Both the position numbers and the translations under genes were made by a program. A stretch of DNA of 32,000 bases from Horticoccus luteus (GTDB lineage Bacteria; Verrucomicrobiota; Verrucomicrobiia; Opitutales; Opitutaceae): positions 1,740,001 through 1,772,000 of the forward strand of contig NZ_CP080507.1 of NCBI RefSeq assembly GCF_019464535.1, read 5' to 3'. Shown here in pieces: positions 6,131-32,000 of this stretch; position 1 is the first letter of the stretch, and the number at the start of each line of letters is the position of its first letter. The notes under the pieces are model-generated. The model worked only from the letters and a program-made list of their open reading frames with translations. It was not told the DNA's origin and did no database searches.

Positions 6131-8023
6131 TCAAGCGAGTTGGGCGCGGACCGCGGTCGCGACGGTGGTGGGAAGAAGTTCCGCCAAAGGCGCGCCGCCC
6201 GTGGACGGACAATTCGCGGGCTGCAAAATTTGAACCGGGGCGGCGAACACTGGGCCCGTGCGCACGGGGTTGGTGGGACCGAACAGGGCGATCAGCGGCA
6301 CGCCGAGCGCGTTGGCGAGGTGCATGCCGCCCGTGTCGTTGGTGACGAGCAGTTCGCATTCGGACAGCCCGGCGCAGTATTCGGCGAGAGTTGTGCGGCC
6401 GGCGAGATCGGTGACGCGTGACTCGAAACCAGCGGCGATTTGCTGGGTGATCGGCCGGTCATTGGCCGTGCCGAAAAGCAGCACGGGGCGGTCGGGCGGG
6501 AGGGCTTCGAGCAGATCGCGCCAGTAAGTGACGGGCCAGCGTTTTTCGGGATTGTTTTCGGAGCCGGCGATGAAACCGATCGGACGCGATCCGGGGGGCG
6601 GTGGAGCGCTCGTGCGGATCGGCGTTGTATTGGGTTCGCCCACCAAACCGAAGGCGCGAAGAAAGTGCGTCCACAACTCGAGTTGGTGATGCTGGCGTTC
6701 ATCGAATCCGGGCGGCACGCGAAAGGCGTGCGAAAGGAGAGGCCGGCGCTTGCCTGGCCGCACGAGACCGAAGCGCTGGCGGCAGCCCGTAAGACGGGCT
6801 TCCAGATCACCGCGAAAGGAGTTTGTGAAAAGGAGGTAGCAGTCCGGAAATTCGCGGCGCGCACGCCAGAAATGAGCGAAGTAGCCACGGCCGCGCGGGG
6901 GCAGCGGGCGGATGTGGTCGGCGACGGCGAAGTCGCGCAGAAGGTCCGCAAACGCGGGCTTGGCCACGAGGGTTATTTCGGCGTCGGGACGGGAATGGCG
7001 GATGGCGCGCAGGAGCGGCAGTGCCATCACGACGTCACCGAGCCAGTTGGGGAGGCGAATCCAGAGGCGGGTTTTGCGCGGCAGTTGCATCCAGTTGCGC
7101 AGGCGAAGATCGGTCGCGAGGAAATCGCGTTTGGCTTCGAGTCGCAGGCGGCGCGCGGGCATGTCCTGATTGCGCCAGCGATCGTGCAACCAAAGCCAGG
7201 AGGCGCAGGCGTTGTCGTCGGCTTGCAGGAAGTTTTCGAGCCAACGGTTGAGGTTGATGACGGGCTCTTCGATGCCGGTGCCGGCGTCTAGGCGGTGCGC
7301 ATCGATTTCGTAGGACCAGAAGCCGTGGCGGCGGGGAAACACGCAGACGATCTCGGCGTGGTATTTCTCCACCAGCAGACCTGGTAGTTCGGAGCTGGAG
7401 CAAATGCGCCCGAAGAGCGTCGCGAGTGCGCCCTGCAAGCCCGCATTTTGGTCGAACAGCAACGCCACGAGGCCGCCACGGCGCAGCACCTGCAGCGCCT
7501 CGGAGAATCCGCGTTTGCGGGAAAGCATTTTTACGCCGAATCGCTCGCGAGTCAGGCGCACCCAGGCGTCGAGGACGGGATTGTCGAGGGGACGAAAGAT
7601 CGTGTTGAAAACGGGAGAGTCGGCACCGAGGAGCAGTGGGAGCGCGGTCTGCATTTCCCAGCCGGTGAAGTGCAACGTGGCGATCAGCGTGGGCGTGGAG
7701 GTTTGCACCTGCCGCCGGGAGAGGGCGCGCATCGTGGGTGAGACCGAGGCGATGCGTTGCGTGCGCTCGGCGCTGAAAAACGGCATCGCCAGCGAGAGTA
7801 AACCCGATTCCACCAGCCGATGGGAGCAGGCGCGGGCGATGCCGCGGCGCCAGGCATCGCTCCGCTCAGGGAAAGCGTGATGGAGGTTGGAGAAGAGCAG
7901 GCGTCGGCGACGGCGGAGAACGAGCAGCATCGCGTCGCCCAAGGCGGCGCTGAGGGCCCGCAACAGCGGCACGGGCGAGTGCGCCGTGAGCCAGCCGAGG
8001 ATCTGCAGAAGCAGTTTAAGCAC
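6131..8023 (-). CDS. Fusion protein: N-terminal LpxL/HtrB-type lipid A late acyltransferase domain plus C-terminal glycosyltransferase family 9 (heptosyltransferase-like) domain
   Basis: Single uninterrupted 630-codon ORF with a GTG start at 8023. aa 1-286 carry the HX4E motif (HFTGWE), FDQNAG and the terminal WLWLHDRW typical of lipid A lauroyl/myristoyl acyltransferases. aa ~318-630 carry the GT9 hallmarks RLPNWLGDVVMALPLLRAI, GSENNPEKRWP, LVTNDTGGMHLANALG and LFGPTNP. Confidence 0.85.
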   Translation of the reverse strand: MLKLLLQILGWLTAHSPVPLLRALSAALGDAMLLVLRRRRRLLFSNLHHAFPERSDAWRRGIARACSHRLVESGLLSLAMPFFSAERTQRIASVSPTMRALSRRQVQTSTPTLIATLHFTGWEMQTALPLLLGADSPVFNTIFRPLDNPVLDAWVRLTRERFGVKMLSRKRGFSEALQVLRRGGLVALLFDQNAGLQGALATLFGRICSSSELPGLLVEKYHAEIVCVFPRRHGFWSYEIDAHRLDAGTGIEEPVINLNRWLENFLQADDNACASWLWLHDRWRNQDMPARRLRLEAKRDFLATDLRLRNWMQLPRKTRLWIRLPNWLGDVVMALPLLRAIRHSRPDAEITLVAKPAFADLLRDFAVADHIRPLPPRGRGYFAHFWRARREFPDCYLLFTNSFRGDLEARLTGCRQRFGLVRPGKRRPLLSHAFRVPPGFDERQHHQLELWTHFLRAFGLVGEPNTTPIRTSAPPPPGSRPIGFIAGSENNPEKRWPVTYWRDLLEALPPDRPVLLFGTANDRPITQQIAAGFESRVTDLAGRTTLAEYCAGLSECELLVTNDTGGMHLANALGVPLIALFGPTNPVRTGPVFAAPVQILQPANCPSTGGAPLAELLPTTVATAVRAQLA

Positions 8024-9101: not shown

Positions 9102-10370
9102 ATGCTCGATCCCAAACTTCTCCGCGATTCGCCGGACATCGTCCGCGCCGCCATCGCCAAAAAGCACCTCGATATCGATCTCGATGCGGTCCTCGCCGTC
9201 GATACTGCGTGGCGCACGCGTTTGATCGAGGTGGAGCATTTGCGCGCCCAACAGAAGGCCGCGAATGCAGAAATGGCGGCGCTGCCGAAAGGGTCGCCCG
9301 AATTCATCGCGAAGGTGCAGGAGATGAAAACCGTCGCCGCCCGCGCGAAGGAAGGCGACGCGAAGCTGAAGGAGTTGGAGGAGAAATGGCGCGAGGCATT
9401 GCTTTCGCTGCCCAACCTGCCGCACAGCTCGGTGCCGGAAGGGCGCACGCCGGAGGAGAACGTGGTCTATGCCTTGCACGGCGCTCAGGATGCGGCGTAT
9501 CCCGCGGCGCGTCCGCATTGGGAGATTCCGGGGTTCGAGCGGCTTTTCGATTTTGCGCGTGGCGCCAAGGTGACGGGGGCAGGTTTCCCGTTCTTCATCG
9601 GCGATGGGGCGCGGTTGGTGCGGGCGCTGTTGCAATTTTTTTTGGAGGAGGACACGCGGGCGGGTTACGTGGAGGTGGCGCCGCCGATCTTCGTGAATGA
9701 AGCGAGTGCCACGGCGACCGGGCAGTTGCCTGACAAGGAAGGCCAGATGTATGAGACGACCGACCGGCTCTTCGCCGTGCCGACGGCGGAGGTGCCGCTC
9801 ACGAATTTTTTCCGCGACGAGATTTTGGACGAAGAGGCGCTGCCGGTCTATCGGTGCGCTTACACGCCGTGTTTCCGCCGCGAGGCGGGGAGCTACGGCA
9901 AGGATGTGCGCGGACTGAATCGGGTGCATCAATTCGACAAGGTGGAGCTGCTCAAGTGGGTCCATCCGGAGTCGAGTTACGTCGAACTCGACAAACTGCG
10001 GGAAGATGCCGAGCGGTTGATCCAAAAACTCGAACTGCCTTATCGCGTGCTGCTGATGTGCGGTGGCGATCTGGGTTTTGCGCAGGCGAAAAAATACGAT
10101 TTGGAAGTCTGGGCGGGCGGGCAGAAGCGGTGGCTGGAAGTCTCCAGTTGCAGCAATTTCGAGACGTTTCAGGCGCGGCGGGCGCAGATCCGGTTTCGCA
10201 GCAAGGAGAGTGGGAAACCGGAGCTGGTGCACACGTTGAACGGCTCGGGGCTGGCGGTGCCGCGCATTGTGGCGGCGTTGCTGGAAAATAATCTCCAGCC
10301 GGATGGCACGGTACGCATCCCGGCGGCGCTCGTGCCGTATTTCGGCAAAGAGACGTTGCGGTTTGCGTAG
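9102..10370 (+). CDS. serS: Seryl-tRNA synthetase
   Basis: The start is set at MLDPKLLRD (ATG 9102); the track's 9033 start overlaps the GT9 gene. The protein has the N-terminal coiled-coil arm plus class II core motifs (FRREAGSYGKDVRGLNRVHQFDKVE, TLNGSGLAVPR). Confidence 0.93.
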   Translation: MLDPKLLRDSPDIVRAAIAKKHLDIDLDAVLAVDTAWRTRLIEVEHLRAQQKAANAEMAALPKGSPEFIAKVQEMKTVAARAKEGDAKLKELEEKWREALLSLPNLPHSSVPEGRTPEENVVYALHGAQDAAYPAARPHWEIPGFERLFDFARGAKVTGAGFPFFIGDGARLVRALLQFFLEEDTRAGYVEVAPPIFVNEASATATGQLPDKEGQMYETTDRLFAVPTAEVPLTNFFRDEILDEEALPVYRCAYTPCFRREAGSYGKDVRGLNRVHQFDKVELLKWVHPESSYVELDKLREDAERLIQKLELPYRVLLMCGGDLGFAQAKKYDLEVWAGGQKRWLEVSSCSNFETFQARRAQIRFRSKESGKPELVHTLNGSGLAVPRIVAALLENNLQPDGTVRIPAALVPYFGKETLRFA

Positions 10371-20945: not shown

Positions 20946-21452
20946 ATGGCCAACCCGCTGAAATGTGATCTTTGCTCGAAACCGGCGACCGTGCACCTCA
21001 CGCAGATCGTGAACAACAAAGTGCACAAGATCGACCTGTGCGAAGCGTGTGCGCAGGCGAAGGGCGTCACTGACCCCAGCGGGTTCTCGCTGGCTGATTT
21101 GCTGTTAAAAGCTTCCCTCAATCCCGAGGCCGCGACGACCGGCGTGCGGTGTGAGCAATGCGGTTTCACGCAAACGGATTTTAAGAAGCATGGCCGTTTC
21201 GGCTGTCCCGCGTGCTACGAGACATTCAAAGGCATTCTCGAGCCAATGCTCGACAACATGCACAAGGGCACCGTGCACACCGGCAAAGTGCCGCAACGGG
21301 CACTCGAACGGAAATCACTTTACGACCGCCTGACGAAACTGGAGGTCGATCTCAGCGATGCGATCAAGTCTGAGCGTTACGAGGATGCAGCGCGCTGCCG
21401 CGATGAAATCAACCAAGTCAAACAGTCCGTCGCGACCAAGCCGTCGCGCTAA
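20946..21452 (+). CDS. mcsA: McsA-like activator of protein arginine kinase (zinc-ribbon pairs plus UVR motif)
   Basis: CDLC...CEAC and CEQC...GRFGCPACYETF zinc-finger pairs, HTGKVP, and a C-terminal UVR motif ERYEDAARCRDEINQVK. Colinear with Bacillus McsA as I recall it. Confidence 0.85.
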   Translation: MANPLKCDLCSKPATVHLTQIVNNKVHKIDLCEACAQAKGVTDPSGFSLADLLLKASLNPEAATTGVRCEQCGFTQTDFKKHGRFGCPACYETFKGILEPMLDNMHKGTVHTGKVPQRALERKSLYDRLTKLEVDLSDAIKSERYEDAARCRDEINQVKQSVATKPSR

Positions 21453-21456
21453 CGCC

Positions 21457-22548
21457 ATGGATATTGCCACGCTCATCGACAGTCCGTCCGAGCTCACCGA
21501 TTCAGCGGGGAGCAAGACGGCGATCGTCTTGATGACGCGCGTGCGTTTGGCTCGCAACCTCGACCGCCGTTCGTTCCCCGGCTGGGCCAACGAGCAAGAC
21601 AAGGCGGCGATCCTCGAAACCTGCCGCGCGGCCGTCGCGAGCGCACCGGCGATGCGCCGCGGCCTCAACGTGGCGCTCGCTGATCTCTCAGATCTTGAAC
21701 GCCAGATTCTGGTGGAACGGCATTTGATCAGTCGCGAGCTAAGCGGCGCCAAATCCGGCGCCGGCCTCGTGGTCAGCCGGGATCAAGCGGTCGCGGTGAT
21801 GATCAACGAAGAGGATCACCTGCGGATTCAAGTGTTGCGCTCGGGACTTCAACTGAAGCGGGCGTGGAATACCATTAACGATCTCGATTCCAATCTGGAG
21901 GAGCGGCTCGATTTCGCCTATTCGCCCACGCTTGGGTATCTGACGGCGTGTCCCACGAATCTCGGCACGGCGATGCGCGCTTCCGCGATGATGCACCTGC
22001 CGGCGCTGGTGATTGCGGGGCAGATGGAGAAAGTCGTCCGGGCGGTCAACCAACTCGGCATGGTCGTGCGCGGCTTGTTCGGCGAAGGCTCGGATGCGAG
22101 TGGTAGCATTTTCCAAATCTCCAATCAGACGACGCTCGGTGAGGCGGAGGAAGAGATCATCAAACGCCTCGGCAGTGTGCTGCAGTCGATCATCGATCAC
22201 GAAGTCAACGCCCGCGAAAAGTTGATCGAGTCCGACGCCGGCAAGCTGTTCGACAAGATCGGCCGCGCCTACGGCATTCTGCAAAACAGCCACATGCTCA
22301 GTTCGAGTGAAGCGATGAACTTGTTGTCGCTCGTGCGCCTGGGTGCCGACTTGGGCGTGTTCCCTGCGGAGCAACGTTCGATTATCGACCGCCTCCTCAT
22401 CGAGGCGCAGCCCGGGCATTTGCAGCATGCCCAACGCGGCGAATGTGACCCGAGCCAGCGCGACCTTTTGCGGGCCGCGCGCCTCCGCACCGAATTTGCA
22501 AATTTCGGCCGGCCCGAGTTCTCTCCTTCACGCAACGGCAACAATTAA
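21457..22548 (+). CDS. mcsB: Protein arginine kinase McsB (phosphagen-kinase fold)
   Basis: The start is set at MDIATLI (ATG 21457), 4 nt after the mcsA stop. Motifs RVRLARNL, NEEDHLRIQ, YLTACPTNLGTAMRASAMMHLPAL, VRGLFGEGS and IFQISNQTTLG are shared with McsB/ATP:guanido phosphotransferases. Confidence 0.9.
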   Translation: MDIATLIDSPSELTDSAGSKTAIVLMTRVRLARNLDRRSFPGWANEQDKAAILETCRAAVASAPAMRRGLNVALADLSDLERQILVERHLISRELSGAKSGAGLVVSRDQAVAVMINEEDHLRIQVLRSGLQLKRAWNTINDLDSNLEERLDFAYSPTLGYLTACPTNLGTAMRASAMMHLPALVIAGQMEKVVRAVNQLGMVVRGLFGEGSDASGSIFQISNQTTLGEAEEEIIKRLGSVLQSIIDHEVNAREKLIESDAGKLFDKIGRAYGILQNSHMLSSSEAMNLLSLVRLGADLGVFPAEQRSIIDRLLIEAQPGHLQHAQRGECDPSQRDLLRAARLRTEFANFGRPEFSPSRNGNN

Positions 22549-22563
22549 CCCCTTTACCATTTC

Positions 22564-25092
22564 ATGTCACAAGAACCGATGAATAATTTCACCCCGCGGG
22601 CGCAGCAGGTGCTCGCGCTGGCGCGGAAAGAGGCCGACCGGTTTCACCACAACTACGTGGGCACCGAACATCTGCTGCTGGGCTTGATCAAGCTCGGTCA
22701 GGGCGTCGCCGTGAGCGTGCTCCAGAAAATGGGTCTCGACTTGGAGACGGTGCGTTCAGCCGTCGAGAAGCAGGTCGGCACGGGGCAGGAAAGCAAACCC
22801 GCCGGCAGCATCCCTTACACACCCCGCGTGAAAAAGGTGCTCGCGCTCGCCGGCAAGGAGGCGAAGGCGCTCAACCATTCCTACGTCGGCACAGAGCACA
22901 TTTTGCTCGGCTTATTGCGCGAAGGCGAAGGAGTGGCCGCGCGCGTGCTCAAGTCGCTCGACATCGACATCGAACGCACCCGCAACGAAATTTTGCGTGA
23001 ACTCGATCCTCAGTTTTCCGCCGGTGAAGGCGGTGGCGGCGGCGAGGAATCGGCGGCGGGCAACGGTCCGGTCCGCAGCGGCGGCGGCGGCGGCGAGGAC
23101 AAAAAAGAGGTCAAGACACCGGCGTTGAAAGCGTTCGGCCGCGACCTCACTGAACTCGCGCGCAAGGGCGAGATGGATCCGGTCGTGGGTCGCAAAAACG
23201 AGATTCGCCGTGTCATCCAGATTCTCTGCCGGCGGACCAAGAACAATCCCGTGCTGATCGGTGAAGCCGGCGTGGGCAAGACGGCCATCGTCGAAGGACT
23301 CGCGCAGGAAATCGTGGCCGGCAACGTCCCCGAGATCCTGTTTGAGAAAAAGGTCATCACGCTCGACCTCGCCCTCATGGTGGCGGGCACCAAATACCGC
23401 GGTCAGTTCGAAGAGCGGATCAAAGCAGTGATGGACGAGATCAAACGCGCGAAAAATGTCATCCTGTTCATCGACGAGATGCACACGATCGTCGGTGCAG
23501 GCGCCGCGGAAGGCGCGATGGATGCGTCCAACATCTTCAAGCCGGCGCTTTCGCGCGGTGAGTTGCAATGCGTGGGCGCGACGACGCTCAACGAATACCG
23601 GAAATACATTGAGAAGGATTCGGCGCTCGACCGCCGCTTCCAAAGCGTGAAGGTCGAACCGCCGTCAGTCGAAGACACGATCACGATTTTGAAGGGAATC
23701 CGGAGCAAATACGAAGATCACCACAAGGCGACCTTCAGCGACCGCGCCATCGAGGCGGCGGCGAAGTTGTCGGATCGCTACATCACCGGACGGTTTTTGC
23801 CCGACAAGGCCATCGACGTCATGGACGAGGCCGGTTCCCGCGCACGCATCGCCGCGCTGACCCGTCCGCCGGATGTGGAAAACATGGTGAAGGAAATCGA
23901 CGAAGTCTGCGCTCAGAAAGAGCAGGCGATCGCTGCCCAACGCTTCGAGGAAGCGGCGAAATTCCGCGACCATGAGAAGCAGTTGCGCGCCAAACAGGAG
24001 GAGATCACGGAGTCGTGGAAGAAAGCTCGCGATGAAAAGCGGGTGGAGATCGACGACGAGCTGATGATGCAGGTCGTCGCCGATTGGACCGGCATCCCGC
24101 TGAACCGGATGGAGAAGAAGGACAGCGAGAAGCTGCTCGCCCTGGAAAAGGAGCTGCAAAAGACCGTGATCGGTCAGGACGCGGCGGCCAGTGCGATTGC
24201 GCGCGCGCTCCGTCGTTCCCGGGCGGACCTCAAGGATCCTCGGCGGCCGATTGGCTCGTTCATGTTCGTCGGGCCCACGGGCGTTGGCAAAACGATGCTC
24301 GCGAAGCAACTCGCCGCGCAGATGTTCGGCAACCAAGAGGCGATCATCCAGATCGACATGTCGGAATACATGGAGAAGTTCGCCGTCTCGCGTTTGGTCG
24401 GCTCGCCTCCGGGCTACGTCGGCTACGAAGAGGGTGGGCAGCTCACCGAGGCCGTGCGGCGCAAGCCGTATGCCGTGGTGCTCTTCGACGAAGTCGAAAA
24501 GGCCCATCCCGACGTCATTCAACTGCTGTTGCAAATTTTGGAAGACGGCCGCCTCACGGATTCCCTCGGGCGCACGGTCGATTTCCGGAATACGATCATC
24601 ATCATGACGTCGAACGTAGGCGCGCATTTGCTGCAGCGGCAGACGTCGATGGGATTTGCGGCGGCATCTACGAACATCAATGATTCGGAGAAGATGCGGG
24701 AGAAGGTGCTGGAAGAGTCGAAGCGGGTGTTCAAGCCCGAGTTCCTCAACCGCATTTCCGACATCATCTTCTTCCATCCGCTCACGCGGGATGATCTCGT
24801 GAAAATCGTGGAGCTCGAAACCGCGAATTTCTCGAAACGGCTGTCGGAACGGAAGATCACGCTCGAGTTTACGGCGGAAGCGAAGGCGCTTCTGATCGAG
24901 AAAGGCTACGACGAGAAATACGGCGCGCGTCCCTTGCGCCGCGCGGTCGAGCAATATCTCGAGGATCCGTTGGCGGAAGCGATCTTGCGCGGCGACGTCA
25001 AAGACGGCGAGCCCGTGACCGTTTCGCGCGAAGGCGACAAGCTGGTCTTTCAGCAGCAAACGCCCGCCGCCGACACCGGCGTGGCTCCCTGA
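22564..25092 (+). CDS. clpC: AAA+ unfoldase ClpC (Clp protease ATP-binding subunit)
   Basis: Duplicated Clp_N repeats each carry GTEH(L/I)LLGL. D1 Walker [10 protein letters not shown]-domain UVR motif [12 protein letters not shown]2 Walker A GPTGVGKT, and a ClpP-docking-type loop region. The gene lies 15 nt after mcsB. An alternative start is MNNFTPRA at 22579. Confidence 0.95.
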
Positions 25093-25125
25093 AAGCGCCA
25101 GCCATCTGTGGCCGAAAAAGCCCCG

Positions 25126-25162
25126 GAGCCGCAAGCCGGCCCCGGGGCTTTTCGTTTGATCG
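25126..25162. terminator. Bidirectional rho-independent terminator between convergent clpC and paralog B
   Basis: The stem AAAAGCCCCGG (25126-25136) / CCGGGGCTTTT (25152-25162) has an inner GCCG/CGGC extension. T-runs follow the stem on both strands. Confidence 0.8.
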
Positions 25163-25181
25163 GTGCCGCGAAAAAGAAGGG

Positions 25182-27389
25182 TTACGGAATTTCGTAGACT
25201 TCGATGAGCCCGACGCCCGTCGTGGCATCGGCGCCGGCGAGTTGCACGGTATAAGCGCCGGGTTCCAACGTGAGAATGAAGGCGGCATCCTTCGATCCGG
25301 CCACGAGCGGGAAGGCGCCAACCGTGCTCGAAGTGGTCGCGATCGCGGGGCCGTCGTTGGTTTCCCAATCGTTGTTCGCGGCGATGGCGGTCGCGTTGCC
25401 GTTCGCAAAGAGCGTCAGCGTAGGATCAGCGAGCGTACCGGCAACGCCGTAGGAACCAAGAGTCGGACCTACGCCGCGCACGAGAACCCTCAGGCTGGTC
25501 GCCCCGCGGACAACGAAACCAGCGATCATGATATCGCTGCCGCTACCGACGTAGCCCCGACCCGAGACGTTGATCAACCGGCCTGACGTAGCATTGTAGG
25601 CGGTGATTTCCTGCGCATCGTATACTTCCGCCAAAAGAGGGCCCGTGCCGCCCGCGACACCGGTAACCACGATCGAATAGGGTGCAGGTTCGAGAGCGGG
25701 AGCATAAAGCGCGGCGTCTTTGCTGGTGACATTCGCGAACGGGAAGGCACCGACTCGAGCGCTGAGCTGAACGATATCGGCATCGCCCGCCCAATTGTCG
25801 TTTTCCGCGATCGTCGCGCCGGTCGCTTGCACGGCCAGGCGCAATTGAGGATCGGCGAGGGCGCCGGATACGCCGTAGTCACCGAGAGTGGGGCCGGCGG
25901 CGCGCACCAACGTCGGTTTGGCACCCGGTCCGCCCACGACGGTGCCGACGATGAGCGCCTGGTCGGCCGTGCCGCAAAAGCCGCGGATGGATACGTTCAC
26001 GATGTGCCCGGCACTCGAGGCATCGACGAGCGTGAGGGTGACGGCCGAACTCGTCGTGGTGCCCACGTCGTTGGCAATATCGACGGTGTAGGAGCCGGCG
26101 TTGGCGGAAGTGGCATTGTGCACCATCAACGTCGCGCTGGTCGCGCCCGTGAGGGCCACGTTGTTGAGTTTCCACTGATAGCTGGTCCCTCCGGTTGCGA
26201 CGACAGTGAAGACCGCCGTGCCGCCGGCGACGACCGACTGAGATTGCGGCTGCGTGGTGATGACCGCGGGTGCCGGCGCGGCGGCGCCCGTGACGGTCAG
26301 GACCAAAGGGAGGTTTTGAATACTGAACGCCGCTTGAGAGTTATCCTGACCGACGAGCACGTATGTGCCGTTACCGTAGGCGATATCGTAGGGGAGATAA
26401 CTGCGGACCAAAAAGCCGGACTGGGGCGTCGGATTGGCGGGCAGATATCCGACGGGCGTCCAACTCGCGCCGTCAGCCGAAACCATGTAACCGCTCTTGC
26501 CGGTGGAGAGATCGACGGATTGGGCGACAAATCCTGCACTCGTGAAGCGCGGCGTGCCTCCGGGCGGAAACCAGCCGGTCGGCGCAGTGGTCGTGAGTTT
26601 GGTGAAGGCGACCCCGTCGGCGCTCCGGTATTGGAAGCCGTTCGCCGAGGCCACGAGGATGCCGTTGCCGGCCTCCACGCGGCTGCCGCCCGGCACCGTC
26701 AGGCTGGAAAGCGCCGTCCATGTTTCGGCGTCCGAACTGGAATAAGTCGTGCCGCCGAAGCCATTGATACTGGAGAAGAATTTTCCGTTGGAATAGGCGA
26801 GATCGAGATGGTCGAAGCCGACCGCGTTGGCCACGACGGGACGAGACACCCACGTGACGAGATCGGTCGAAGCGACTTGAGCGCCGTTGCTGGCGGCGGC
26901 GACATACAGCGTCGGGCTGGCATCGAACTCCTGCACGTTGATCCGACCATCGGTGACTTTGTTCGCCGTCCACGTCAGGCCGTCGGCACTTGAGTAGCAC
27001 CACGTAGTGCCGGCCACGCCGCCAAGGGTGTCGCCGAAGCCCGTGAAGAAAATGAATTTTCCGTTAAGGTAGTGAACCTTCGAGGTCTGGAAGGTGACGA
27101 GCGTGCTGTCAGGAAGCGCCTGACTTCGCCCGGTCCAGGTGGTGCCGTCCGGGCTCGTCGCCCAACGGATGACGGTTTCCTTGGTCGACGCGCAGACTGC
27201 AACGAAGAGGCCGTTGCCATAGGCGACGCCGACAAATCCGACGGCTTGAGGATCAAGGACCGCTTTGCCGGCATTGCCAAATGTCGCGTCGAGGCCGGTG
27301 TTGACGACGGTGAACGTGGGTGTCTGGGCAAACGCGGAGACCGCGGCGAGGGCGAGAAGCAAGCCAAGCGAACGAGCGAGGAGGTGCAT
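25182..27389 (-). CDS. Secreted paralog B: signal peptide, ~7-blade Asp-box-like beta-propeller, Ig-like domain and 2x uncharacterised C-terminal module (function unknown)
   Basis: The start is set at MHLLARSLGLLLALAAVSAFAQ (ATG 27389, a good signal peptide). Blades repeat as [Y-G-N-G-x-F-V...S-x-D-G-x-x-W]. The Ig-like segment is ITTQPQSQSVVAGGTAVFTV...YQWKLNN...AGSYTVDIAN. The two C-terminal modules are homologous to those of paralog A. Confidence 0.85.
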   Translation of the reverse strand: MHLLARSLGLLLALAAVSAFAQTPTFTVVNTGLDATFGNAGKAVLDPQAVGFVGVAYGNGLFVAVCASTKETVIRWATSPDGTTWTGRSQALPDSTLVTFQTSKVHYLNGKFIFFTGFGDTLGGVAGTTWCYSSADGLTWTANKVTDGRINVQEFDASPTLYVAAASNGAQVASTDLVTWVSRPVVANAVGFDHLDLAYSNGKFFSSINGFGGTTYSSSDAETWTALSSLTVPGGSRVEAGNGILVASANGFQYRSADGVAFTKLTTTAPTGWFPPGGTPRFTSAGFVAQSVDLSTGKSGYMVSADGASWTPVGYLPANPTPQSGFLVRSYLPYDIAYGNGTYVLVGQDNSQAAFSIQNLPLVLTVTGAAAPAPAVITTQPQSQSVVAGGTAVFTVVATGGTSYQWKLNNVALTGATSATLMVHNATSANAGSYTVDIANDVGTTTSSAVTLTLVDASSAGHIVNVSIRGFCGTADQALIVGTVVGGPGAKPTLVRAAGPTLGDYGVSGALADPQLRLAVQATGATIAENDNWAGDADIVQLSARVGAFPFANVTSKDAALYAPALEPAPYSIVVTGVAGGTGPLLAEVYDAQEITAYNATSGRLINVSGRGYVGSGSDIMIAGFVVRGATSLRVLVRGVGPTLGSYGVAGTLADPTLTLFANGNATAIAANNDWETNDGPAIATTSSTVGAFPLVAGSKDAAFILTLEPGAYTVQLAGADATTGVGLIEVYEIP
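25185..25580 (-). repeat. Paralog B C-terminal module copy 2
   Basis: LINVSGRGYVGSGSDIMIAGFVVRG...LVRGVGPTLGSYGVAGTLADPTLTL...ANNDW...VGAFPLVAGSKDAAFILTLEPGAYTVQLAG...GVGLIEVYEIP(stop). Confidence 0.8.
25617..26006 (-). repeat. Paralog B C-terminal module copy 1
   Basis: IVNVSIRGFCGTADQALIVGTVVGG...LVRAAGPTLGDYGVSGALADPQLRL...ENDNW...VGAFPFANVTSKDAALYAPALEPAPYSIVVTG...GPLLAEVYD. Confidence 0.8.
26025..26267 (-). other. Ig-like (I-set-like) domain of paralog B
   Basis: Pattern Q-P-x-S-x-x-V-x-x-G-x-x-x-x-F-x-V...Y-Q-W...L-x-V-x-N...-G-x-Y-x-V-x-I-x-N, typical of bacterial Ig-like domains. Absent from paralog A. Confidence 0.6.
26340..27242 (-). repeat. About 7 Asp-box-like propeller blades of paralog B
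   Basis: Blade ends at TSPDGTTWT, SSADGLTWT, ASTDLVTWV, SSSDAETWT, RSADGVAFT and VSADGASWT, plus a closing YGNGTYVLVG strand. Confidence 0.7.
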
Positions 27390-27426
27390 GGGGCCGAAAT
27401 TTAAGGCAACTGGCTCGCCCCGAAAA

Positions 27427-27442
27427 TACGCACACGTGCGTA
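27427..27442 (-). promoter_or_regulatory. Palindromic element TACGCAC-AC-GTGCGTA upstream of paralog B (core of the shared 19-mer at 27425-27443)
   Basis: 7+7 bp perfect inverted repeat, 36-54 nt upstream of ATG 27389. A 17/19 identical copy sits at the equivalent position upstream of paralog A (30191-30209). Confidence 0.6.
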
Positions 27443-27451
27443 GATGATGCA

Positions 27452-27481
27452 GCGTCGCGCCCGAGCGGGCGGGCGCGACGC
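27452..27481 (-). terminator. 12-bp perfect GC hairpin directly after the paralog A stop; no U-tract (terminator, attenuator or RNA stabiliser)
   Basis: GCGTCGCGCCCG (27452-27463) / CGGGCGCGACGC (27470-27481) with a 6-nt loop. It lies 6 nt downstream of the TGA (27488-27490) on the minus strand. Confidence 0.5.
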
Positions 27482-27487
27482 GCACGT

Positions 27488-30154
27488 TCATGGCATCGCG
27501 TAAATCTCGACGAGCGCTTCTCCGGTGGTGCCGCCGACGCCGGAAACCTGCACGGTGTAGGCGTTGCCGGGTTGCAGCGTGAGCAACACCGCGGCGTCTT
27601 TGCTCGCGTGCGGAAGGTCGAAGGCACCCACCGTGGTGAACGAACTGGCGAGGGAGGGATCCCAGTCATCATTGGCAGCGATCGGCGAGCCGCCATCGTA
27701 GACCGAGAGTTGCGGATCGGCGAGGGCGCCGGCGACGCCGAAGGTGGTGAGCGTGGGGCCGACAGCGCGGATCAGGAGTTGGCGAGGCCCGGCGCCGCCG
27801 AGCACGAAACCGGCAATGAGAATATCGTTGCCCGTGCCCACACGGAAACGCGTGGAGAGATTAACCATCTTGCGACCATCGTCCGGGCCGGCGTCGTAAG
27901 CTTCTACGAGCACGGAACCGGTGTCGGTGGCGGTCGCTTGCGCCGTGTGGGGGCCGCTGACCGGCTGCAAAAACGCCGCGTCCTTGCTGCCGGCGTCGAA
28001 GGCAAAGGCACCGAGACTCGCGAAGGTTGAGGCGAGCGAGGGATCCCAGTTGTCGTTGGAAGTCACCACCGTGCTACCGTCGAAGAGCGTCACGTTCGGG
28101 TCGCTCACGCCGGCGACACCGAATTGCGCAAGGGCCGGGCCGGCGGCGCGGACGAGGATGGGCTTGGCGCCGCCGTCGACGACGAAGCCGACGATCAGTG
28201 TCTGCGCCGCGGTGGTCGCGGCGCGAACGGAAAGATTGGAAAGGTAACTTGGCGGCGCGGCAACGACGAGGAGGTCGCCCCGCAGAATGGTGCCGGCAGA
28301 GCCGATGCCGACGACGACCGAGTCGTGGGCGACCGTGCGTTCGATGAGAGAATTCGGAGCAAACGAGTTTTCGACAGGTGTCCAGGTCACGCCGTCTGCG
28401 CTGCTGTAGGCGGCGGCGCCATAGCCGGCGCTGCGCGCGATGAACTGATGCCCGACAAACTTAACGCTACTCAGCGCAAAAGTCGTCGGCAGCGCGTTGA
28501 TGGTCCAGTTGGTTCCGTCCGGGCTTGTGACGGATTGCCGATCACTGTTCAGGATGACGAAGCGGTTGTTGCCGTAAGCGATGGACTCCGGGCTGGCGGT
28601 CATGCCGGTCGGCGTGGTGTTGGACCATGCAATGCCGTCGGCGCTGGTGAAGAGTTTAGGCGCGGTGGAACCGTAGCCCAGCATGGCGAGCACGAATTTG
28701 TCGCCGCCGAAGACCAGGCCGACGGTGTTGCCGCCGGAAGAGGCGATGCCGACGGCGGCACTCCACGTGACGCCATCGACGCTGGTGCGCGCGCCGAGGG
28801 CAGTGGCGTCGTAGGCGGCGACAAATTTGCCGTTGCCGCAGGCGACGTCTTTGTAGCGCTCATACTGGGTTCCGCTGACATTGGTCCAGGTGGTGAGGTC
28901 GGAGCTGTGATAGATACCGGCGTAGTCAGCGGTGACGTAACGCGTGCCGTTATAGGTCAGGCGGCCGAAGTTGGCGGTGGTGCCGGTGTTGATTTGGGTC
29001 CACGTCGCGCCATCGGGACTGGTGAGGATCGTACCCCCGGCGCCCGACGCGACGAATTGTGTGCCGTCGAAGATGAGGCCGCTTAGGTCGTTGATCGTGC
29101 CGGTCGACTGCCGTGTCCAAGTCACGCCATCGAGCGACGTGGTGATGGAGCCGTAGGAGCCGAAAACGAAAAAAACGTTGTTGGCGCAGGCCGTCCAGGA
29201 GACGCCTTCGAATTGCGCGCCGAGCTGGCGGGCGGAATTGGGAAGGGCGGAGGTTTGTTTTGTCCAGGAAACGCCGTCCGGGCTGGAAAAGACGAGTTTG
29301 CCGCCGGCGCCCACCACGGCGGTCGGCGAAGCGCATACGGAGATGAGTCCCACGCCGCCTCCGCCACCCGCGAGCGCGTTGGCAATGGTCCATGACGTGC
29401 CATCCGTCGACGTGTAGGCGACCGCGTTGAAATTGTTGTCGCGGCCGACGGCGATGAACATAGTGCCGTTGAAGGCGACATCCGAAATGTAAGGCGCCGA
29501 ATTGCCGATGCTGCCTGCGACGGCGATTTGCGTCCACGTGGCACCGTCCGCGCTCGTGATAACGGAGTTGCCGCTGCCGGCCACCACGAAGCGGCCATTG
29601 CCGTAGGCGCTGCCTTCCGGGATGATCACGGTGTCGGCAGCAAGCGGCGACCACGTCAGGCCGTCGGGACTGGTCAGGACACGGGCGCGAGCGGCGGCGC
29701 CGCCGCCCAAGACCCAGAGTCCGTCGCCATGCACGACAGTGTGATATTGCGCGTTGTAGGAGGCTGCGACTGTGGAGTTGATGGTCCAGTTGATGCCGTC
29801 GGCACTCGTCATCACGAGGCCGGCACCCGACGCGTCCGGCGTGCCCATGCCCACGGCGACAAACAAACCGTCTCCGTAATCGATCGAGTTGAGCACCACG
29901 TTGGCTGTGCTCATGCGTCGAATCGTCCAGGTAACGGTGTCCGGACTGGTGGCGATGGTGCCGTCCGCACCGACAACGACGTAAAGACCGTGGCCGTAAG
30001 CCGCGTCCTTCCACGCGATGGAGGCCGGGAGAGAATTCGCCCACTGCCAGTTTTGCTGGGCGAGCAACGGAAGCACGGCGAGCGCGAGCGGGACCAACCT
30101 CGCGACGGAACGGAACGCGCAATAAAGGGCGCGCTGAACGGTGAGAAATTTCAT
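27488..30154 (-). CDS. Secreted paralog A: signal peptide, 14 Asp-box-like blades (probably two 7-blade beta-propellers) and 2x uncharacterised C-terminal module (function unknown)
   Basis: MKFLTVQRALYCAFRSVARLVPLALAVLPLLAQQ is the signal peptide. There are 13 clear S/T-x-D-G-x-x-W blade ends plus a closing strand. Two C-terminal modules follow. The protein ends ...LVEIYAMP(stop). Confidence 0.88.
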   Translation of the reverse strand: MKFLTVQRALYCAFRSVARLVPLALAVLPLLAQQNWQWANSLPASIAWKDAAYGHGLYVVVGADGTIATSPDTVTWTIRRMSTANVVLNSIDYGDGLFVAVGMGTPDASGAGLVMTSADGINWTINSTVAASYNAQYHTVVHGDGLWVLGGGAAARARVLTSPDGLTWSPLAADTVIIPEGSAYGNGRFVVAGSGNSVITSADGATWTQIAVAGSIGNSAPYISDVAFNGTMFIAVGRDNNFNAVAYTSTDGTSWTIANALAGGGGGVGLISVCASPTAVVGAGGKLVFSSPDGVSWTKQTSALPNSARQLGAQFEGVSWTACANNVFFVFGSYGSITTSLDGVTWTRQSTGTINDLSGLIFDGTQFVASGAGGTILTSPDGATWTQINTGTTANFGRLTYNGTRYVTADYAGIYHSSDLTTWTNVSGTQYERYKDVACGNGKFVAAYDATALGARTSVDGVTWSAAVGIASSGGNTVGLVFGGDKFVLAMLGYGSTAPKLFTSADGIAWSNTTPTGMTASPESIAYGNNRFVILNSDRQSVTSPDGTNWTINALPTTFALSSVKFVGHQFIARSAGYGAAAYSSADGVTWTPVENSFAPNSLIERTVAHDSVVVGIGSAGTILRGDLLVVAAPPSYLSNLSVRAATTAAQTLIVGFVVDGGAKPILVRAAGPALAQFGVAGVSDPNVTLFDGSTVVTSNDNWDPSLASTFASLGAFAFDAGSKDAAFLQPVSGPHTAQATATDTGSVLVEAYDAGPDDGRKMVNLSTRFRVGTGNDILIAGFVLGGAGPRQLLIRAVGPTLTTFGVAGALADPQLSVYDGGSPIAANDDWDPSLASSFTTVGAFDLPHASKDAAVLLTLQPGNAYTVQVSGVGGTTGEALVEIYAMP
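27491..27871 (-). repeat. Paralog A C-terminal module copy 2
   Basis: MVNLSTRFRVGTGNDILIAGFVLGG...LIRAVGPTLTTFGVAGALADPQLSV...ANDDWDPSLASSF..VGAFDLPHASKDAAVLLTLQPGNAYTVQVSG...GEALVEIYAMP. Confidence 0.8.
27890..28249 (-). repeat. Paralog A C-terminal module copy 1
   Basis: LSNLSVRAATTAAQTLIVGFVVDGG...LVRAAGPALAQFGVAGVSDPNVTL...SNDNWDPSLASTF..LGAFAFDAGSKDAAFLQPVSGPHTAQATA...GSVLVEAYD. Confidence 0.8.
28280..30022 (-). repeat. 14 tandem ~40-45-aa propeller blades of paralog A
   Basis: Each unit is [I/V]-x-[Y/F]-G-[N/D/H]-G-x-[F/Y]-[V/I]-A-V-G, then a short loop, then T-S-x-D-G-x-[T/S]-W-[T/S]. Examples are YGHGLYVVVG..TSPDTVTWT, YGDGLFVAVG..TSADGINWT and YGNGRFVVAG..TSADGATWT. Confidence 0.75.
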
Positions 30155-30192
30155 GACCCGCCGAGTCTAACGGCCTCGGGAGACCTGCGGAA

Positions 30193-30208
30193 TACGTAGA
30201 CGTGCGTA
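30193..30208 (-). promoter_or_regulatory. Second, partly degenerate copy of the palindromic element, upstream of paralog A (core of the 19-mer at 30191-30209)
   Basis: Plus strand AATACGTAGACGTGCGTAG against AATACGCACACGTGCGTAG at 27425-27443. It lies 37-55 nt upstream of ATG 30154 and 50 nt downstream of the LuxR-type regulator stop. Confidence 0.55.
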
Positions 30209-30258
30209 GCCTAATTCCACCATCGCGCGGCCGGGCGGTACGACGCGGCGCGACGGAA

Positions 30259-31143
30259 TCAGCGGGCGTCCGGCCGAAGAATTTCCAACGCAGCGACGGT
30301 AGCGGCGGTGCGTGTTTCGCAGCCGAGTTTGCGGAAAATATTTTCCACGTGCTTGTGCACCGTGCGGACGTTGGCGCCCAGAATGGTTGCTACGTCGGGA
30401 TTACTTTTCCCTTGGGCGATCCAATACAGAATCTCCGCCTCGCGGGGCGTCAGGCCGAGCGCAATCAGGGCCGGCGGGCCGAGAGTGGAGCGTTTCTCGT
30501 CGAGCATGAGCAGCACGAGATCAGTGCGCCCGGTTTCCGCGAAACGACGGACATCAAGCGGGGACTCGGCGTCAGCCAGATTCGCCGGGAGAGCGCCGGC
30601 GTCGCGGGCCGGGAAATGCTGGTGCAGGAGATTCTCCGCCCGGCGGGTCGAAAAGACGATGCGCCCGGCGGCATCCACGAGGAGGACGGCGCGATCGAGC
30701 GACTGGCTCAACTCGTTCTCCGCTTCGATGCGCAGCGCGAGTTCGTCGGCGAGGGAGCGTTGCAACGCGCGGATTTGGAGATGGGCGGCGACACGCGCCA
30801 GCACCTCTGGGGGATACACGGGTTTAGTGATGTAATCGACGGCGCCGGCCGAAAATGCGCGGACTTTTTCCGCGGCGTCGTGCAATGCAGTCATGAACAG
30901 AACCGGCACCTCGCGGCACCGCTCATCGCGCTTCAAGATGGCGCAAAGCTCGAAGCCATTCACCTGTGGCATCAGCACATCGAGCAGGAAGAGATCAGGG
31001 GTGTTGTGCGCGAGCAGGGCGAGGGCGCTGGCCGCGCTTTCGGCGACGAGCACATCGTAACCGGCGTCGCTCAGGGCATCGAGCATGAGCGAGATGTTGG
31101 CCGGCGTGTCATCGACCACGAGGACCTTGGCGGGCGGGCTCAT
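30259..31143 (-). CDS. Response regulator: receiver (REC), coiled-coil/PAS-like segment and LuxR/FixJ-type HTH
   Basis: REC: VLVVDDTPANI...LLDVLMPQVNGFE...ITKP. Middle: AVLLVDAAGRIVFSTRRAENLL (PAS-like). C-terminus: LTPREAEILYWIAQGKSNPDVATILGANVRTVHKHVENIFRKLG (LuxR HTH). ATGA overlap with the upstream kinase stop (31140-31143). Confidence 0.88.
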   Translation of the reverse strand: MSPPAKVLVVDDTPANISLMLDALSDAGYDVLVAESAASALALLAHNTPDLFLLDVLMPQVNGFELCAILKRDERCREVPVLFMTALHDAAEKVRAFSAGAVDYITKPVYPPEVLARVAAHLQIRALQRSLADELALRIEAENELSQSLDRAVLLVDAAGRIVFSTRRAENLLHQHFPARDAGALPANLADAESPLDVRRFAETGRTDLVLLMLDEKRSTLGPPALIALGLTPREAEILYWIAQGKSNPDVATILGANVRTVHKHVENIFRKLGCETRTAATVAALEILRPDAR

Positions 31144-32000
31144 GTCACGGGCGAATCGCCGAGGCGCCCGGCCAGTTGCCGGCGGATTGCTTCCATCTGG
31201 AAGGCGGTGGCGGCGATCTCCAACTCGCGCAGCCCGGCATCGGTGGGGAATTGTTTTCGCAGGACCGCAAGGTGTTCACGGAGCGGACGAATTTCGCCGC
31301 GACGCGCGAGATCGAGGAGTTGCCGAAGATCGCGCAGAGGAACGTCACCCGGTGCGGTGGAGCTGAACGGCGACGATGATTCTTCGTAACGCCAAGTGAG
31401 CCGAAGATGGAGGCCGAGTTTCGCCAGCAGTTCGGATTGGCGGAAAGGCTTGGGCAGAAAGTCATCGCAACCCGCGGCAAGCGCTTCGTCGCGATTGAAC
31501 GAGAGCACCGAGGCGGACATCGCCACGATGGCGATGCGCGCGGCGGCAGGGCGCGTGCGCAGGGCGCGCGTGATGGCGATCCCATCCATGTCGGGCATGC
31601 GCAGATCGACGAGCACCGCGTCGAAGGCTTGCGCATCGAATTTCGCAAGGGCGGCGAGTCCCGTGTCGGCTTCTTCGCAAGCGAAACCCAAAGGGGTGAG
31701 CAGCTCCACGAGCACAGCGCGATTCACTGCCACGTCGTCGACGATCAAAAGCCGTCGCCGCGGACCGGCGTAGGCGAGGGGCTGGCGCATGGTCGGCGCG
31801 GAGGCGTCGGCGTCGACGGCGAGCGGTTCGAGCGCGAGTGAGAAGGAGAAGGTGCTGCCGCATCCGAGTTCGCTTTCCACGGTGATCGTGCCGCCCATGA
31901 GCTGCACGAAGCGCTGGGCGATCGCGAGGCCGAGACCGGTGCCGGGCTCGGGTGGGCGCGCGTCCGCCGCTTGATGGAACGGCTGGAAAAGTTGGACTTG
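31140..32000 (-). CDS. Hybrid sensor histidine kinase, 5' part outside the window: end of HATPase_c, receiver domain and an ~86-aa helical tail
   Basis: The reading frame is open to nt 32000. G2-box region FQPFHQA...GTGLGLAIAQRFVQLMGGTITVESELGCGSTFSF. REC: RLLIVDDVAVNR...DLRMPDMDG...LPKP. The C-terminal tail ...LRDLRQLLDLARRGEIRPLREHLAVLRKQFP... has no family I can assign. Confidence 0.85.
   Translation of the reverse strand, partial: QVQLFQPFHQAADARPPEPGTGLGLAIAQRFVQLMGGTITVESELGCGSTFSFSLALEPLAVDADASAPTMRQPLAYAGPRRRLLIVDDVAVNRAVLVELLTPLGFACEEADTGLAALAKFDAQAFDAVLVDLRMPDMDGIAITRALRTRPAAARIAIVAMSASVLSFNRDEALAAGCDDFLPKPFRQSELLAKLGLHLRLTWRYEESSSPFSSTAPGDVPLRDLRQLLDLARRGEIRPLREHLAVLRKQFPTDAGLRELEIAATAFQMEAIRRQLAGRLGDSPVT

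Follow-up and report, generated by a model that had tools for sequence, protein, structure and literature searches.

We analysed a stretch of 32,000 nucleotides (hereafter, the window) from the chromosome of the soil bacterium Horticoccus luteus (Opitutaceae), at one end of which a hybrid histidine kinase gene and a LuxR-type response regulator gene are followed by two genes for paralogous exported propeller proteins, A and B. The promoter regions of both paralogues contain the same palindrome, TACGCA-N4-TGCGTA. This palindrome recurs upstream of dispersed genes in many other genomes, and we conclude that it is a regulon operator, a family-wide and probably activating site for secreted-protein genes, and not a general promoter element. 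The regulator encoded in the window is the best candidate for its binding factor, an assignment that we regard as reasonably probable given the distribution of the sites. With similar confidence, we interpret the locus as a chromosomal two-component system of H. luteus together with two members of its regulon, the rest of which would be dispersed throughout the family.

A palindrome precedes genes A and B

The initial annotation had reported one 19-nucleotide element upstream of both paralogues at the same distance from the start codon, and we found it there. The copy before A (CTACGCACGTCTACGTATT, 30191-30209) ends 36 nucleotides before the ATG, and the copy before B (CTACGCACGTGTGCGTATT, 27425-27443) ends 35 nucleotides before it. 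These are the only two matches in the 32 kb when up to three mismatches are allowed; shuffled sequences gave 0.02 matches on average, and two or more matches did not occur in any of 100 shuffles. The description of the element as palindromic is also correct, with the amendment that the symmetrical core spans 16 bp within the 19-mer. Read on the minus strand, this core is a perfect TACGCA-N4-TGCGTA before B (TACGCACGTGTGCGTA, 27427..27442) and departs from it by one mismatch before A (TACGCACGTCTACGTA, 30193..30208). Both copies belong to the proximal (P) type defined below.

The elements of a promoter can be placed consistently relative to the palindromes. The predicted -10 hexamers, TAGACT for A (30164..30169, minus strand) and TAAATT for B (27398..27403, minus strand), lie 23 nucleotides after the palindrome, and the start codons (30154 and 27389, respectively) follow 9 and 8 nucleotides further on. 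The -35 regions that abut the palindromes of A and B are poor (TTCCGC, TTTTCG). A scan with the sigma-70 consensus found no promoter in the region, which fits a dependence on an activator. We propose from this arrangement that A and B are each a transcription unit of their own, with one predicted promoter per gene.

Two rigid promoter geometries

We collected the palindromes with at most one mismatch from the window and from 27 related loci (designated by L numbers), which resulted in 42 non-redundant sites. They split into two types, with approximately 33 proximal and 9 distal sites. At the proximal sites, the palindrome is followed by TT, and a -10-like hexamer occurs exactly 23 nucleotides on: TAnnnT is found at this offset in 24 of the 42 sites, and in none or one of them at every other offset between 15 and 34. 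The matches to the strict pattern described in the next section provide a control, because TAnnnT occurs at +23 in 14 of the 21 matches from Verrucomicrobiota versus 1 of the 30 from other phyla. If the -10 hexamer is placed at -12 to -7, the palindrome covers about -51 to -36 and is centred at about -43.5 (the numbering being predicted), next to poor -35 hexamers such as TTCAGC or TTCCGC. This centre, the contact with the -35 region, and the fixed phasing are those of class II activator sites of the LuxR/TraR type, insofar as the predicted numbering is right.

The distal sites have other central tetranucleotides (TTCC, ATCC, TACC, TCTC, TCCT). They are located either 16-17 nucleotides upstream of a good TTGAC -35 hexamer, with a centre at about -60, or 28-40 nucleotides upstream of a proximal site. 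Fixed class II plus class I positions are typical of activators such as TraR, LuxR, and CRP/FNR. Tandem palindromes, with the distal one 28-40 nucleotides upstream of the proximal one, are found before the first gene after the regulator in L061 (10885/10913), L068 (10888/10917), and L141 (10949/10989), an arrangement that suggests cooperative binding. In L001, the distal site of the second kinase gene (5179-5194, TACGCATACCTGCGTA) and the proximal site of the A-like gene (9961-9976, TACGCAGGTATGCGTA) are exact reverse complements of each other, and the asymmetric central four bases may encode orientation.

The start codon is also found at a nearly constant position. In 25 of 31 promoters, including those of A (9 nucleotides) and B (8 nucleotides), the ATG comes 7-12 nucleotides after the -10 hexamer, with a mode of 8. 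We thus predict leaderless or near-leaderless mRNAs for these genes and, by extension from the promoter sequences, for many Sec-exported proteins of Verrucomicrobiota. Examples of this short spacing, none with an obvious Shine-Dalgarno sequence, are found in the window (30152-30169 and 27387-27403), in L003 (9986-10003), and in L141 (14675-14691). For gene B, the geometry favours the start of the 735-residue protein over that of the 769-residue open reading frame.

The element is dispersed among Verrucomicrobiota

We scanned one genome per species, from 185,579 species, with a strict 17-nucleotide pattern (CTACGCANNTATGCGTATT). Its sensitivity is about 30%, since it recovers about 4 of 14 independently found proximal sites. 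The scan returned 51 stretches. Opitutaceae and other Verrucomicrobiota account for 21 of them, three of which come from one genome of 8.86 Mb, and the remaining 30 are single matches in unrelated phyla. Among the matches outside Verrucomicrobia, some have identical flanks (L013, L019, L020, L028, and L032 on the one hand; L017, L025, and L037 on the other). We read several of the non-Verrucomicrobial matches as one conserved coding stretch in Clostridia, and not as regulatory sites.

In the 21 Verrucomicrobial loci, the gene behind the palindrome almost always encodes a protein with a signal peptide. Eleven of these genes are of the A or B class: the C-terminal domain pair described below was detected in nine, and two are cut by the end of the contig before the pair. 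The others include PQQ_2/BamB-like propellers, small lipoproteins, and one likely outer-membrane barrel, judged from the end of its sequence. Two metagenome-assembled genomes of Verrucomicrobia outside the Opitutaceae (L052, about 3300-4281; L055, about 3600-4455) have the palindrome and the -10 hexamer before genes for small signal-peptide proteins. We read the tail of the L052 protein (...VPEP, a hydrophobic stretch, then RRFKKKD) as being of the PEP-CTERM type.

The presence of the element does not depend on a neighbouring two-component system. Homologues of A in other Opitutaceae have it before the start codon with or without a kinase and regulator nearby: L001 is syntenic with the window, and L003 to L006 are non-syntenic and lack two-component genes within 10 kb. 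At loci with no kinase or regulator gene within 10 kb (L003, L006, L008-L056), the palindrome is still found in this promoter geometry before secreted-protein genes, among them homologues of A and B, and tblastn searches for the regulator gene near the dispersed sites found none. In total, the P-type promoter architecture was found at no fewer than 30 promoters in about 25 Verrucomicrobial genomes.

These results change the interpretation of the locus. It had been proposed that the four genes form a fixed unit with a private operator, a view that we abandon because the palindrome recurs at dispersed promoters and the slot behind the regulator is variable. The same proposal would have treated occurrence of the motif at many unrelated promoters as the mark of a general promoter element. 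The motif does recur at many promoters, but these form a coherent class of secreted-protein genes, and there are only three strict matches in 8.86 Mb.

Sites concentrate at the kinase-regulator loci

We examined 17 distinct loci encoding orthologues of the regulator. The kinase gene directly precedes the regulator gene in all of them, and the common order is LysR, one or two kinases, the regulator, a slot of variable content, ClpC, McsB, and a UVR-domain protein. The suggested kinase-regulator-propeller-propeller synteny is conserved in its first half, and the gene set behind the regulator varies. The slot accommodates zero to four secreted-protein genes. It contains A and B in the window, a B-like gene, an A-like gene, and two more in L138, two Ig/propeller genes in L141, and a single gene in each of L001, L061, L068, and L065. 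There is no co-oriented gene in the slot of about ten loci (L058, L060, L062, L064, L066, L067, L140, L142, L143, and L144). Every co-oriented gene located directly after the regulator has a proximal site, and some loci have several sites within about 13 kb: three in L138, five in L141, and four in L068.

The kinase genes also have sites. A distal site precedes the second kinase gene in all six loci with two kinases (L001, L061, where it is weak with two mismatches, L068, L141, L142, and L144), and another precedes the first kinase gene in L068, L141, and L142. In L142 and L144, the kinase genes have sites even if there is no secreted-protein gene nearby. By a rough count, the density of sites at regulator loci is about 1 per 12 kb (about 20 sites in about 245 kb). 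Our genome-wide estimate, from the three strict matches in 8.86 Mb and the sensitivity of about 30%, is about 1 site per several hundred kb.

Other features of these loci are conserved. The module of arginine kinase and ClpC, best known from Firmicutes, is kept beside the regulator across Opitutaceae. A gene for a signal-peptide protein of about 600-657 residues, convergent with the regulator gene and located between it and clpC, is conserved in L001 (12998-14797), L058 (2781-4592), L060 (8210-10051), L062 (7479-9278), and L142 (10964-12937). It is not present in the window, and the copies of L001 and L142 have no match in Pfam.

The kinase and the regulator

The regulator (294 residues; 30259..31143, minus strand) is 100% identical to a protein of H. 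luteus. It has an N-terminal REC domain (PF00072, E = 9.7e-28; residues 1-118 in the structural model) and a C-terminal GerE/LuxR helix-turn-helix (HTH) domain (PF00196, E = 2.8e-15, residues 231-284; helices at 223-289 in the model). The best 120 clusters of related proteins listed have 66-88% identity, except for the identical H. luteus protein, with equal length and domains, and the regulator can be regarded from these sequences as a highly conserved core gene of Opitutaceae. Among 56 orthologues (65-88% identity), D11, D12, D55, T85, and K107 are invariant. The same is true of R260, T261, H263, K264, H265, and E267 in the recognition helix, where V262 and V266 are conserved in at least 90% of the sequences. 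The match between invariant residues of the recognition helix and an invariant DNA motif is what one would expect if the regulator were the binder.

The region between these two domains is unusual. The AlphaFold model (mean predicted local distance difference test, pLDDT, of 88) places there a helix of 38 residues (111-148), followed by a small alpha/beta domain of four strands and one helix (152-216). The initial annotation had labelled this part PAS, a label that our analysis does not confirm: there is no match to a Pfam PAS profile at E <= 0.1, and the PDB yielded nothing at E <= 10 for a profile of residues 143-224. A PAS fold comprises a five-stranded sheet with flanking helices, compared with the four strands and single helix of the model. 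Searches of the model with Foldseek matched full-length StyR, LiaR, VraR, and FixJ, and the list is dominated by REC domains, so that it does not inform on the middle domain. Typical family members have two domains joined by a short linker, in about 200-220 residues, and the regulator departs from them by its length and by the extra helix and domain. It is an architectural variant of the NarL/FixJ family, with a LuxR-type HTH.

The kinase gene is cut by the end of the window, which contains its 3' part (31140..32000, minus strand) with the end of HATPase_c, REC, and a helical tail of about 80 residues. This fragment matches HATPase_c (PF02518, E = 7.7e-11) and REC (PF00072, E = 9.5e-25), and its best NCBIfam matches are hybrid kinases of the TorS, ArcB, and BarA types. 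With HATPase_c followed by REC within one polypeptide, it is a hybrid kinase. Its full-length orthologues (1255-1332 residues) consist of Reg_prop/Y_Y_Y, HisKA, HATPase_c, and REC in precomputed Pfam annotations. The tail after REC (window 31140-31390) has no match in Pfam or NCBIfam; no histidine phosphotransfer (HPt) domain was recognised in it, and we saw no gene for a free-standing HPt protein in the examined loci.

Which factor binds the palindrome

The anatomy of the genes and domains, the conservation and strict placement of the palindrome, and its clustering at the kinase-regulator loci are direct observations. From them we infer a mechanism that covers the binding factor, its activating role, the transcription starts and leaderless messages, the nature of the signal, and the part played by A and B. 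The hybrid kinase would sense a signal through a periplasmic Reg_prop/Y_Y_Y sensor, a domain read in the orthologues, and would control the phosphorylation of the NarL/LuxR-type regulator. A dimer of the phosphorylated regulator would then bind the 16-bp palindrome. At A and B, it would activate transcription as a class II factor from about -43.5, in the manner of LuxR and TraR, with the palindrome placed against a poor -35 region. Transcription would start at the ATG or a few nucleotides before it, from separate units for the two genes. The same palindrome would govern a dispersed regulon of secreted and envelope proteins in Opitutaceae and other Verrucomicrobiota, and the second geometry, with a centre at about -60 upstream of a TTGAC -35 hexamer, would provide positive autoregulation at the kinase genes.

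The sites before the kinase genes are the key evidence for the identity of the binder. Their presence in six out of six two-kinase loci looks like autoregulation, suggesting that it is positive, and this makes the regulator of the window the best candidate. The adjacent regulator had been put forward as the obvious candidate from its proximity to A and B. The clustering of sites at regulator loci and their position before kinase genes favour this choice. We also considered LysR, encoded upstream of the kinases, and rejected it because its gene is equally present in loci without sites and adjoins a divergent aconitase gene.

Several observations weigh against the regulator as the binder. Since most of the known sites are far from its gene, another conserved factor could bind them, and the kinase genes would merely be among its targets. 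About ten orthologous regulator loci, including all four single-kinase loci that were checked (L060, L062, L140, and L143), have no palindrome within 10 kb, which implies that autoregulation is not universal. The motif is also found in Verrucomicrobia outside the Opitutaceae (L052 and L055). With a REC domain in the kinase itself and no recognisable HPt, the route of phosphotransfer to the regulator is not evident. Finally, the region upstream of the kinase in H. luteus is beyond the end of the window.

The main alternative is that the palindrome is the operator of an unlinked global factor, of the CRP/FNR type or another dimer, which controls the genes of secreted proteins and of kinases, and that the regulator binds elsewhere. 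The many sites that have neither a kinase nor a regulator gene within 10 kb and the regulator loci devoid of sites speak for this hypothesis, and CRP/FNR-type factors, too, typically act from centres near -43.5 (class II) and -60 (class I). It explains less well why sites are strongly concentrated at the regulator loci and why, in every two-kinase locus, the kinase beside the regulator is preceded by one, even in the absence of secreted-protein genes. Furthermore, no other transcription factor gene is consistently found beside the sites, that of LysR being as frequent where sites are lacking. We regard an unlinked factor as unlikely, although more probable than the alternatives below.

One could also accept the adjacent regulator as the binder and reverse its role. 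Bound next to the -35 region, a dimer could keep RNA polymerase off the promoter and act as an occluding repressor. However, the spacing of 23 bp to the -10 hexamer is invariant across more than 30 promoters of many genomes, whereas repressor sites tolerate shifts. The combination of a poor -35 (TTCnGn) at the proximal sites with a second class at about -60 upstream of a good TTGAC is the pattern of an activator. Repression therefore seems improbable to us.

The fixed distance to a -10-like box at many promoters could suggest a general promoter element, read by RNA polymerase with an alternative or extracytoplasmic function (ECF) sigma factor. Yet, the two half-sites are conserved to the same degree and form a perfect dyad, a symmetry for which a sigma factor has no use, and the gap of 23 bp between the element and the -10 is too long for a -35/-10 pair. 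The element is also too rare, being found in the 32-kb window only at the promoters of A and B and three times (strict matches) in 8.86 Mb, and it is present at about -60 upstream of ordinary TTGAC promoters. We consider this explanation highly improbable. We give almost no credence to an action of the element as RNA (a 5' hairpin, terminator, or riboregulator) or to its being a dispersed repeat: the B copy can form a hairpin of 6 bp, but the A copy has no fold (-1.8 kcal/mol, z 0.1), the variants break the pairing on one side without compensation, the -10 hexamer is downstream of the element, which is thus not expected in its own transcript, the flanks are not conserved, and the element has no match in Rfam.

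Proteins A and B

Genes A (27488..30154, minus strand) and B (25182..27389, minus strand) encode paralogues with 34% identity over 700 residues (E = 5e-66). Their lengths, 888 and 735 residues, are those initially reported, with B counted from its second in-frame ATG. The reported layout is also right, since both proteins have a signal peptide and Asp-box propellers followed by two copies of one C-terminal module. Protein A has 13 SxDGxxWT Asp-box motifs, in 13 blades of DUF6242-type propellers, spaced by 38-49 residues (about 43). Protein B has four strict motifs in a single propeller and an Ig domain at residues 376-449. The score of A with DUF6242 in Pfam is 43 bits, for a cut-off of 29, B reaches no propeller model, and a sequence search of the PDB revealed no relative of A. 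From these features we infer that A and B are Sec-exported Asp-box propellers, either secreted or exposed at the surface.

The C-terminal pair encompasses residues 636-888 of A (27491-28249, minus strand) and 458-735 of B (25185-26018, minus strand). Each module has about 130 residues, and all 59 of the 59 homologues having the module have exactly two copies at the extreme C-terminus. Residues 630-888 of A are modelled with a pLDDT of 94.8 as two beta-sandwich domains. The pair has no match in Pfam or NCBIfam, and Foldseek searches of the PDB only retrieved generic tandem beta-sandwiches at template modelling (TM) scores of 0.2-0.3: a PNGase F-like protein, the N-terminal domain of DeCLIC, the collagen-binding pair of ColG, CBM51, and SGBP-B. 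Such low-scoring matches provide a fold class and do not assign a function to the pair.

The pair is very widespread. A profile built from it matched at least 19,300 cluster representatives (at 50% identity) among 1.84 billion proteins, 10,993 of them at E <= 1e-30. Among the best 150 matches, in proteins of 333-3115 residues, the pair ends at the C-terminus in about 140, with a conserved tail LVEVYE[VL]P, the proline being the last residue in 95. The passenger domains are highly diverse, and those ahead of the pair in homologues of A include propellers, Ig domains, beta-helices, and metallophosphatase domains. By these traits the pair looks like a sorting or anchoring tag and is probably a binding or anchoring module. 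It has no features of the known C-terminal signals that we searched for. Protein A ends in ...VEIYAMP and B in ...IEVYEIP, without a transmembrane segment, a PEP motif, or an NCBIfam match that would indicate PEP-CTERM, and the last 250 residues have no Pfam or NCBIfam match at E <= 0.1 to the sorting domain of the type IX secretion system (Por_Secre_tail).

Gene layout and neighbourhood in the window

The layout described in the initial annotation agrees with the open reading frames and their translations. The four genes are co-oriented on the minus strand, the ATG of the regulator overlaps the TGA of the kinase (ATGA at 31140-31143), and the intergenic gaps are 104 nucleotides between the regulator and A and 98 nucleotides between A and B. 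The reported bidirectional terminator is real, and its position shifts by about 10 nucleotides, from 25126-25162 to 25115..25153. It would serve as an intrinsic terminator for B on the minus strand and clpC on the plus strand (22564-25092, convergent with B). According to the folding analysis, it is a hairpin with a 17-bp stem (-34.5 kcal/mol, z -4.1) flanked by an A-run and a U-run, and a scan with Rfam only revealed sub-threshold terminator-like matches at 25086-25195. Another hairpin, GC-rich, occupies the short interval between the stop codon of A, which it directly follows, and the palindrome of B (27447..27485, minus strand; -31.7 kcal/mol, z -3.8). It has no U-tract and may be a non-canonical terminator or insulator between A and B, or a stabiliser of the 3' end.

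Within positions 20946-25092, which include clpC, the open reading frames ahead of clpC correspond by synteny to two kinds of genes in related loci, McsB-like (ATP-gua_Ptrans plus McsB_C) and UVR-domain (McsA-like). The remaining genes of the window have housekeeping functions: tRNA synthetases, FtsH, TilS, lipopolysaccharide heptosyltransferases, and UDP-glucose dehydrogenase. One open reading frame of 630 residues (window 6131-8023) joins a Lip_A_acyltrans domain and a family 9 heptosyltransferase domain.

Comparison with known systems

Although Verrucomicrobiota abound in soil, in fresh water, and in the gut, very little is known of their gene regulation; to our knowledge, no operator has been defined experimentally in this phylum. 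Our analysis proposes an operator, describes its promoters in two geometries, names a candidate regulator, and gives an initial list of regulon members, which includes secreted propeller, PQQ-like, lipoprotein, and PEP-CTERM-type proteins. Leaderless mRNAs for many Sec-exported proteins would, if true, be unexpected in a Gram-negative lineage. The analysis also points to a very large family of unannotated C-terminal domains that probably governs the final location of the proteins that carry it. The initial annotation could not name a described system with this composition, and we found no literature on it in searches for Opitutaceae LuxR regulators and palindromes, DUF6242, the half-site, and Horticoccus luteus. 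The locus is an uncharacterised member of the class of two-component systems with LuxR-type activators, distinguished by an atypical regulator and rigid promoters that are probably leaderless.

The regulator shares with NarL, ComA, LiaR/VraR, and StyR a REC domain with all phospho-acceptor residues and a C-terminal GerE four-helix HTH. Dimers of this family bind 16-bp inverted repeats, such as TTGCGG-N4-CCGCAA for ComA and the 7-2-7 sites of NarL. The candidate target described here is also an inverted repeat of 16 bp, with a 6-4-6 arrangement, and in this it resembles the sites of ComA and the 7-2-7 sites of NarL. We know of no characterised member of the family with the half-site TACGCA. Unlike the typical members, of about 210 residues, the regulator of the window has 294, with an extra helix and alpha/beta domain, and it is associated with a hybrid kinase whose orthologues have Reg_prop/Y_Y_Y.

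The promoters resemble those of LuxR and TraR. In class II promoters of these activators (about -42 to -44), an inverted repeat adjoins or overlaps a weak -35 and keeps a constant spacing to the -10, as in the proximal sites with their predicted centre at about -43.5. The distal class, shifted upstream by about 20 bp and combined with a good -35, corresponds to their class I promoters (about -60 to -65). The difference is in the input, because the regulator of the window would be controlled via REC and not via a domain that binds acyl-homoserine lactones. The kinase orthologues, with Reg_prop/Y_Y_Y, HisKA, HATPase_c, and REC, are similar to the hybrid two-component systems of Bacteroides, which control polysaccharide utilisation loci, whose Reg_prop/Y_Y_Y sensors bind glycan fragments and whose targets are also secreted or surface proteins in a polysaccharide-degrading lineage. 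In contrast to these systems, there is no fused AraC HTH (AraC/HTH_18 is absent from the kinase orthologues), the regulator is a separate protein of the LuxR type, and the targets are monocistronic propeller genes; SusC and SusD are absent from the window and the examined loci.

A further comparison is with PrsK/PrsR, where one shared upstream site serves many mostly single-gene operons of PEP-CTERM proteins (Haft et al. 2006, PMC1569441). Both cases associate a two-component system and a shared cis-element with diverse signal-peptide proteins that have a common C-terminal domain, and the genes behind the palindrome in the two loci from outside the Opitutaceae even read as PEP-CTERM-type, at least in L052 from its tail. 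The parts are different. PrsR is a sigma-54 enhancer-binding protein with a site far upstream of a -24/-12 promoter, whereas here we find a LuxR-type HTH and a -10 of the sigma-70 type; proteins A and B have neither a PEP motif nor a transmembrane tail, their C-terminus being formed by the tandem beta-sandwich pair. It is tempting to go further and see in the pair a new surface-anchoring or sorting tag of Verrucomicrobiota, whose tagged secretome would be switched on by the kinase and regulator through TACGCA-N4-TGCGTA promoters and leaderless mRNAs, as a counterpart of PrsK/PrsR and PEP-CTERM made of different parts. We advance this as a speculation that is unlikely as a whole. By analogy of organisation, PrsK/PrsR with its PEP-CTERM upstream site can be considered the closest functional analogue of the system described here.

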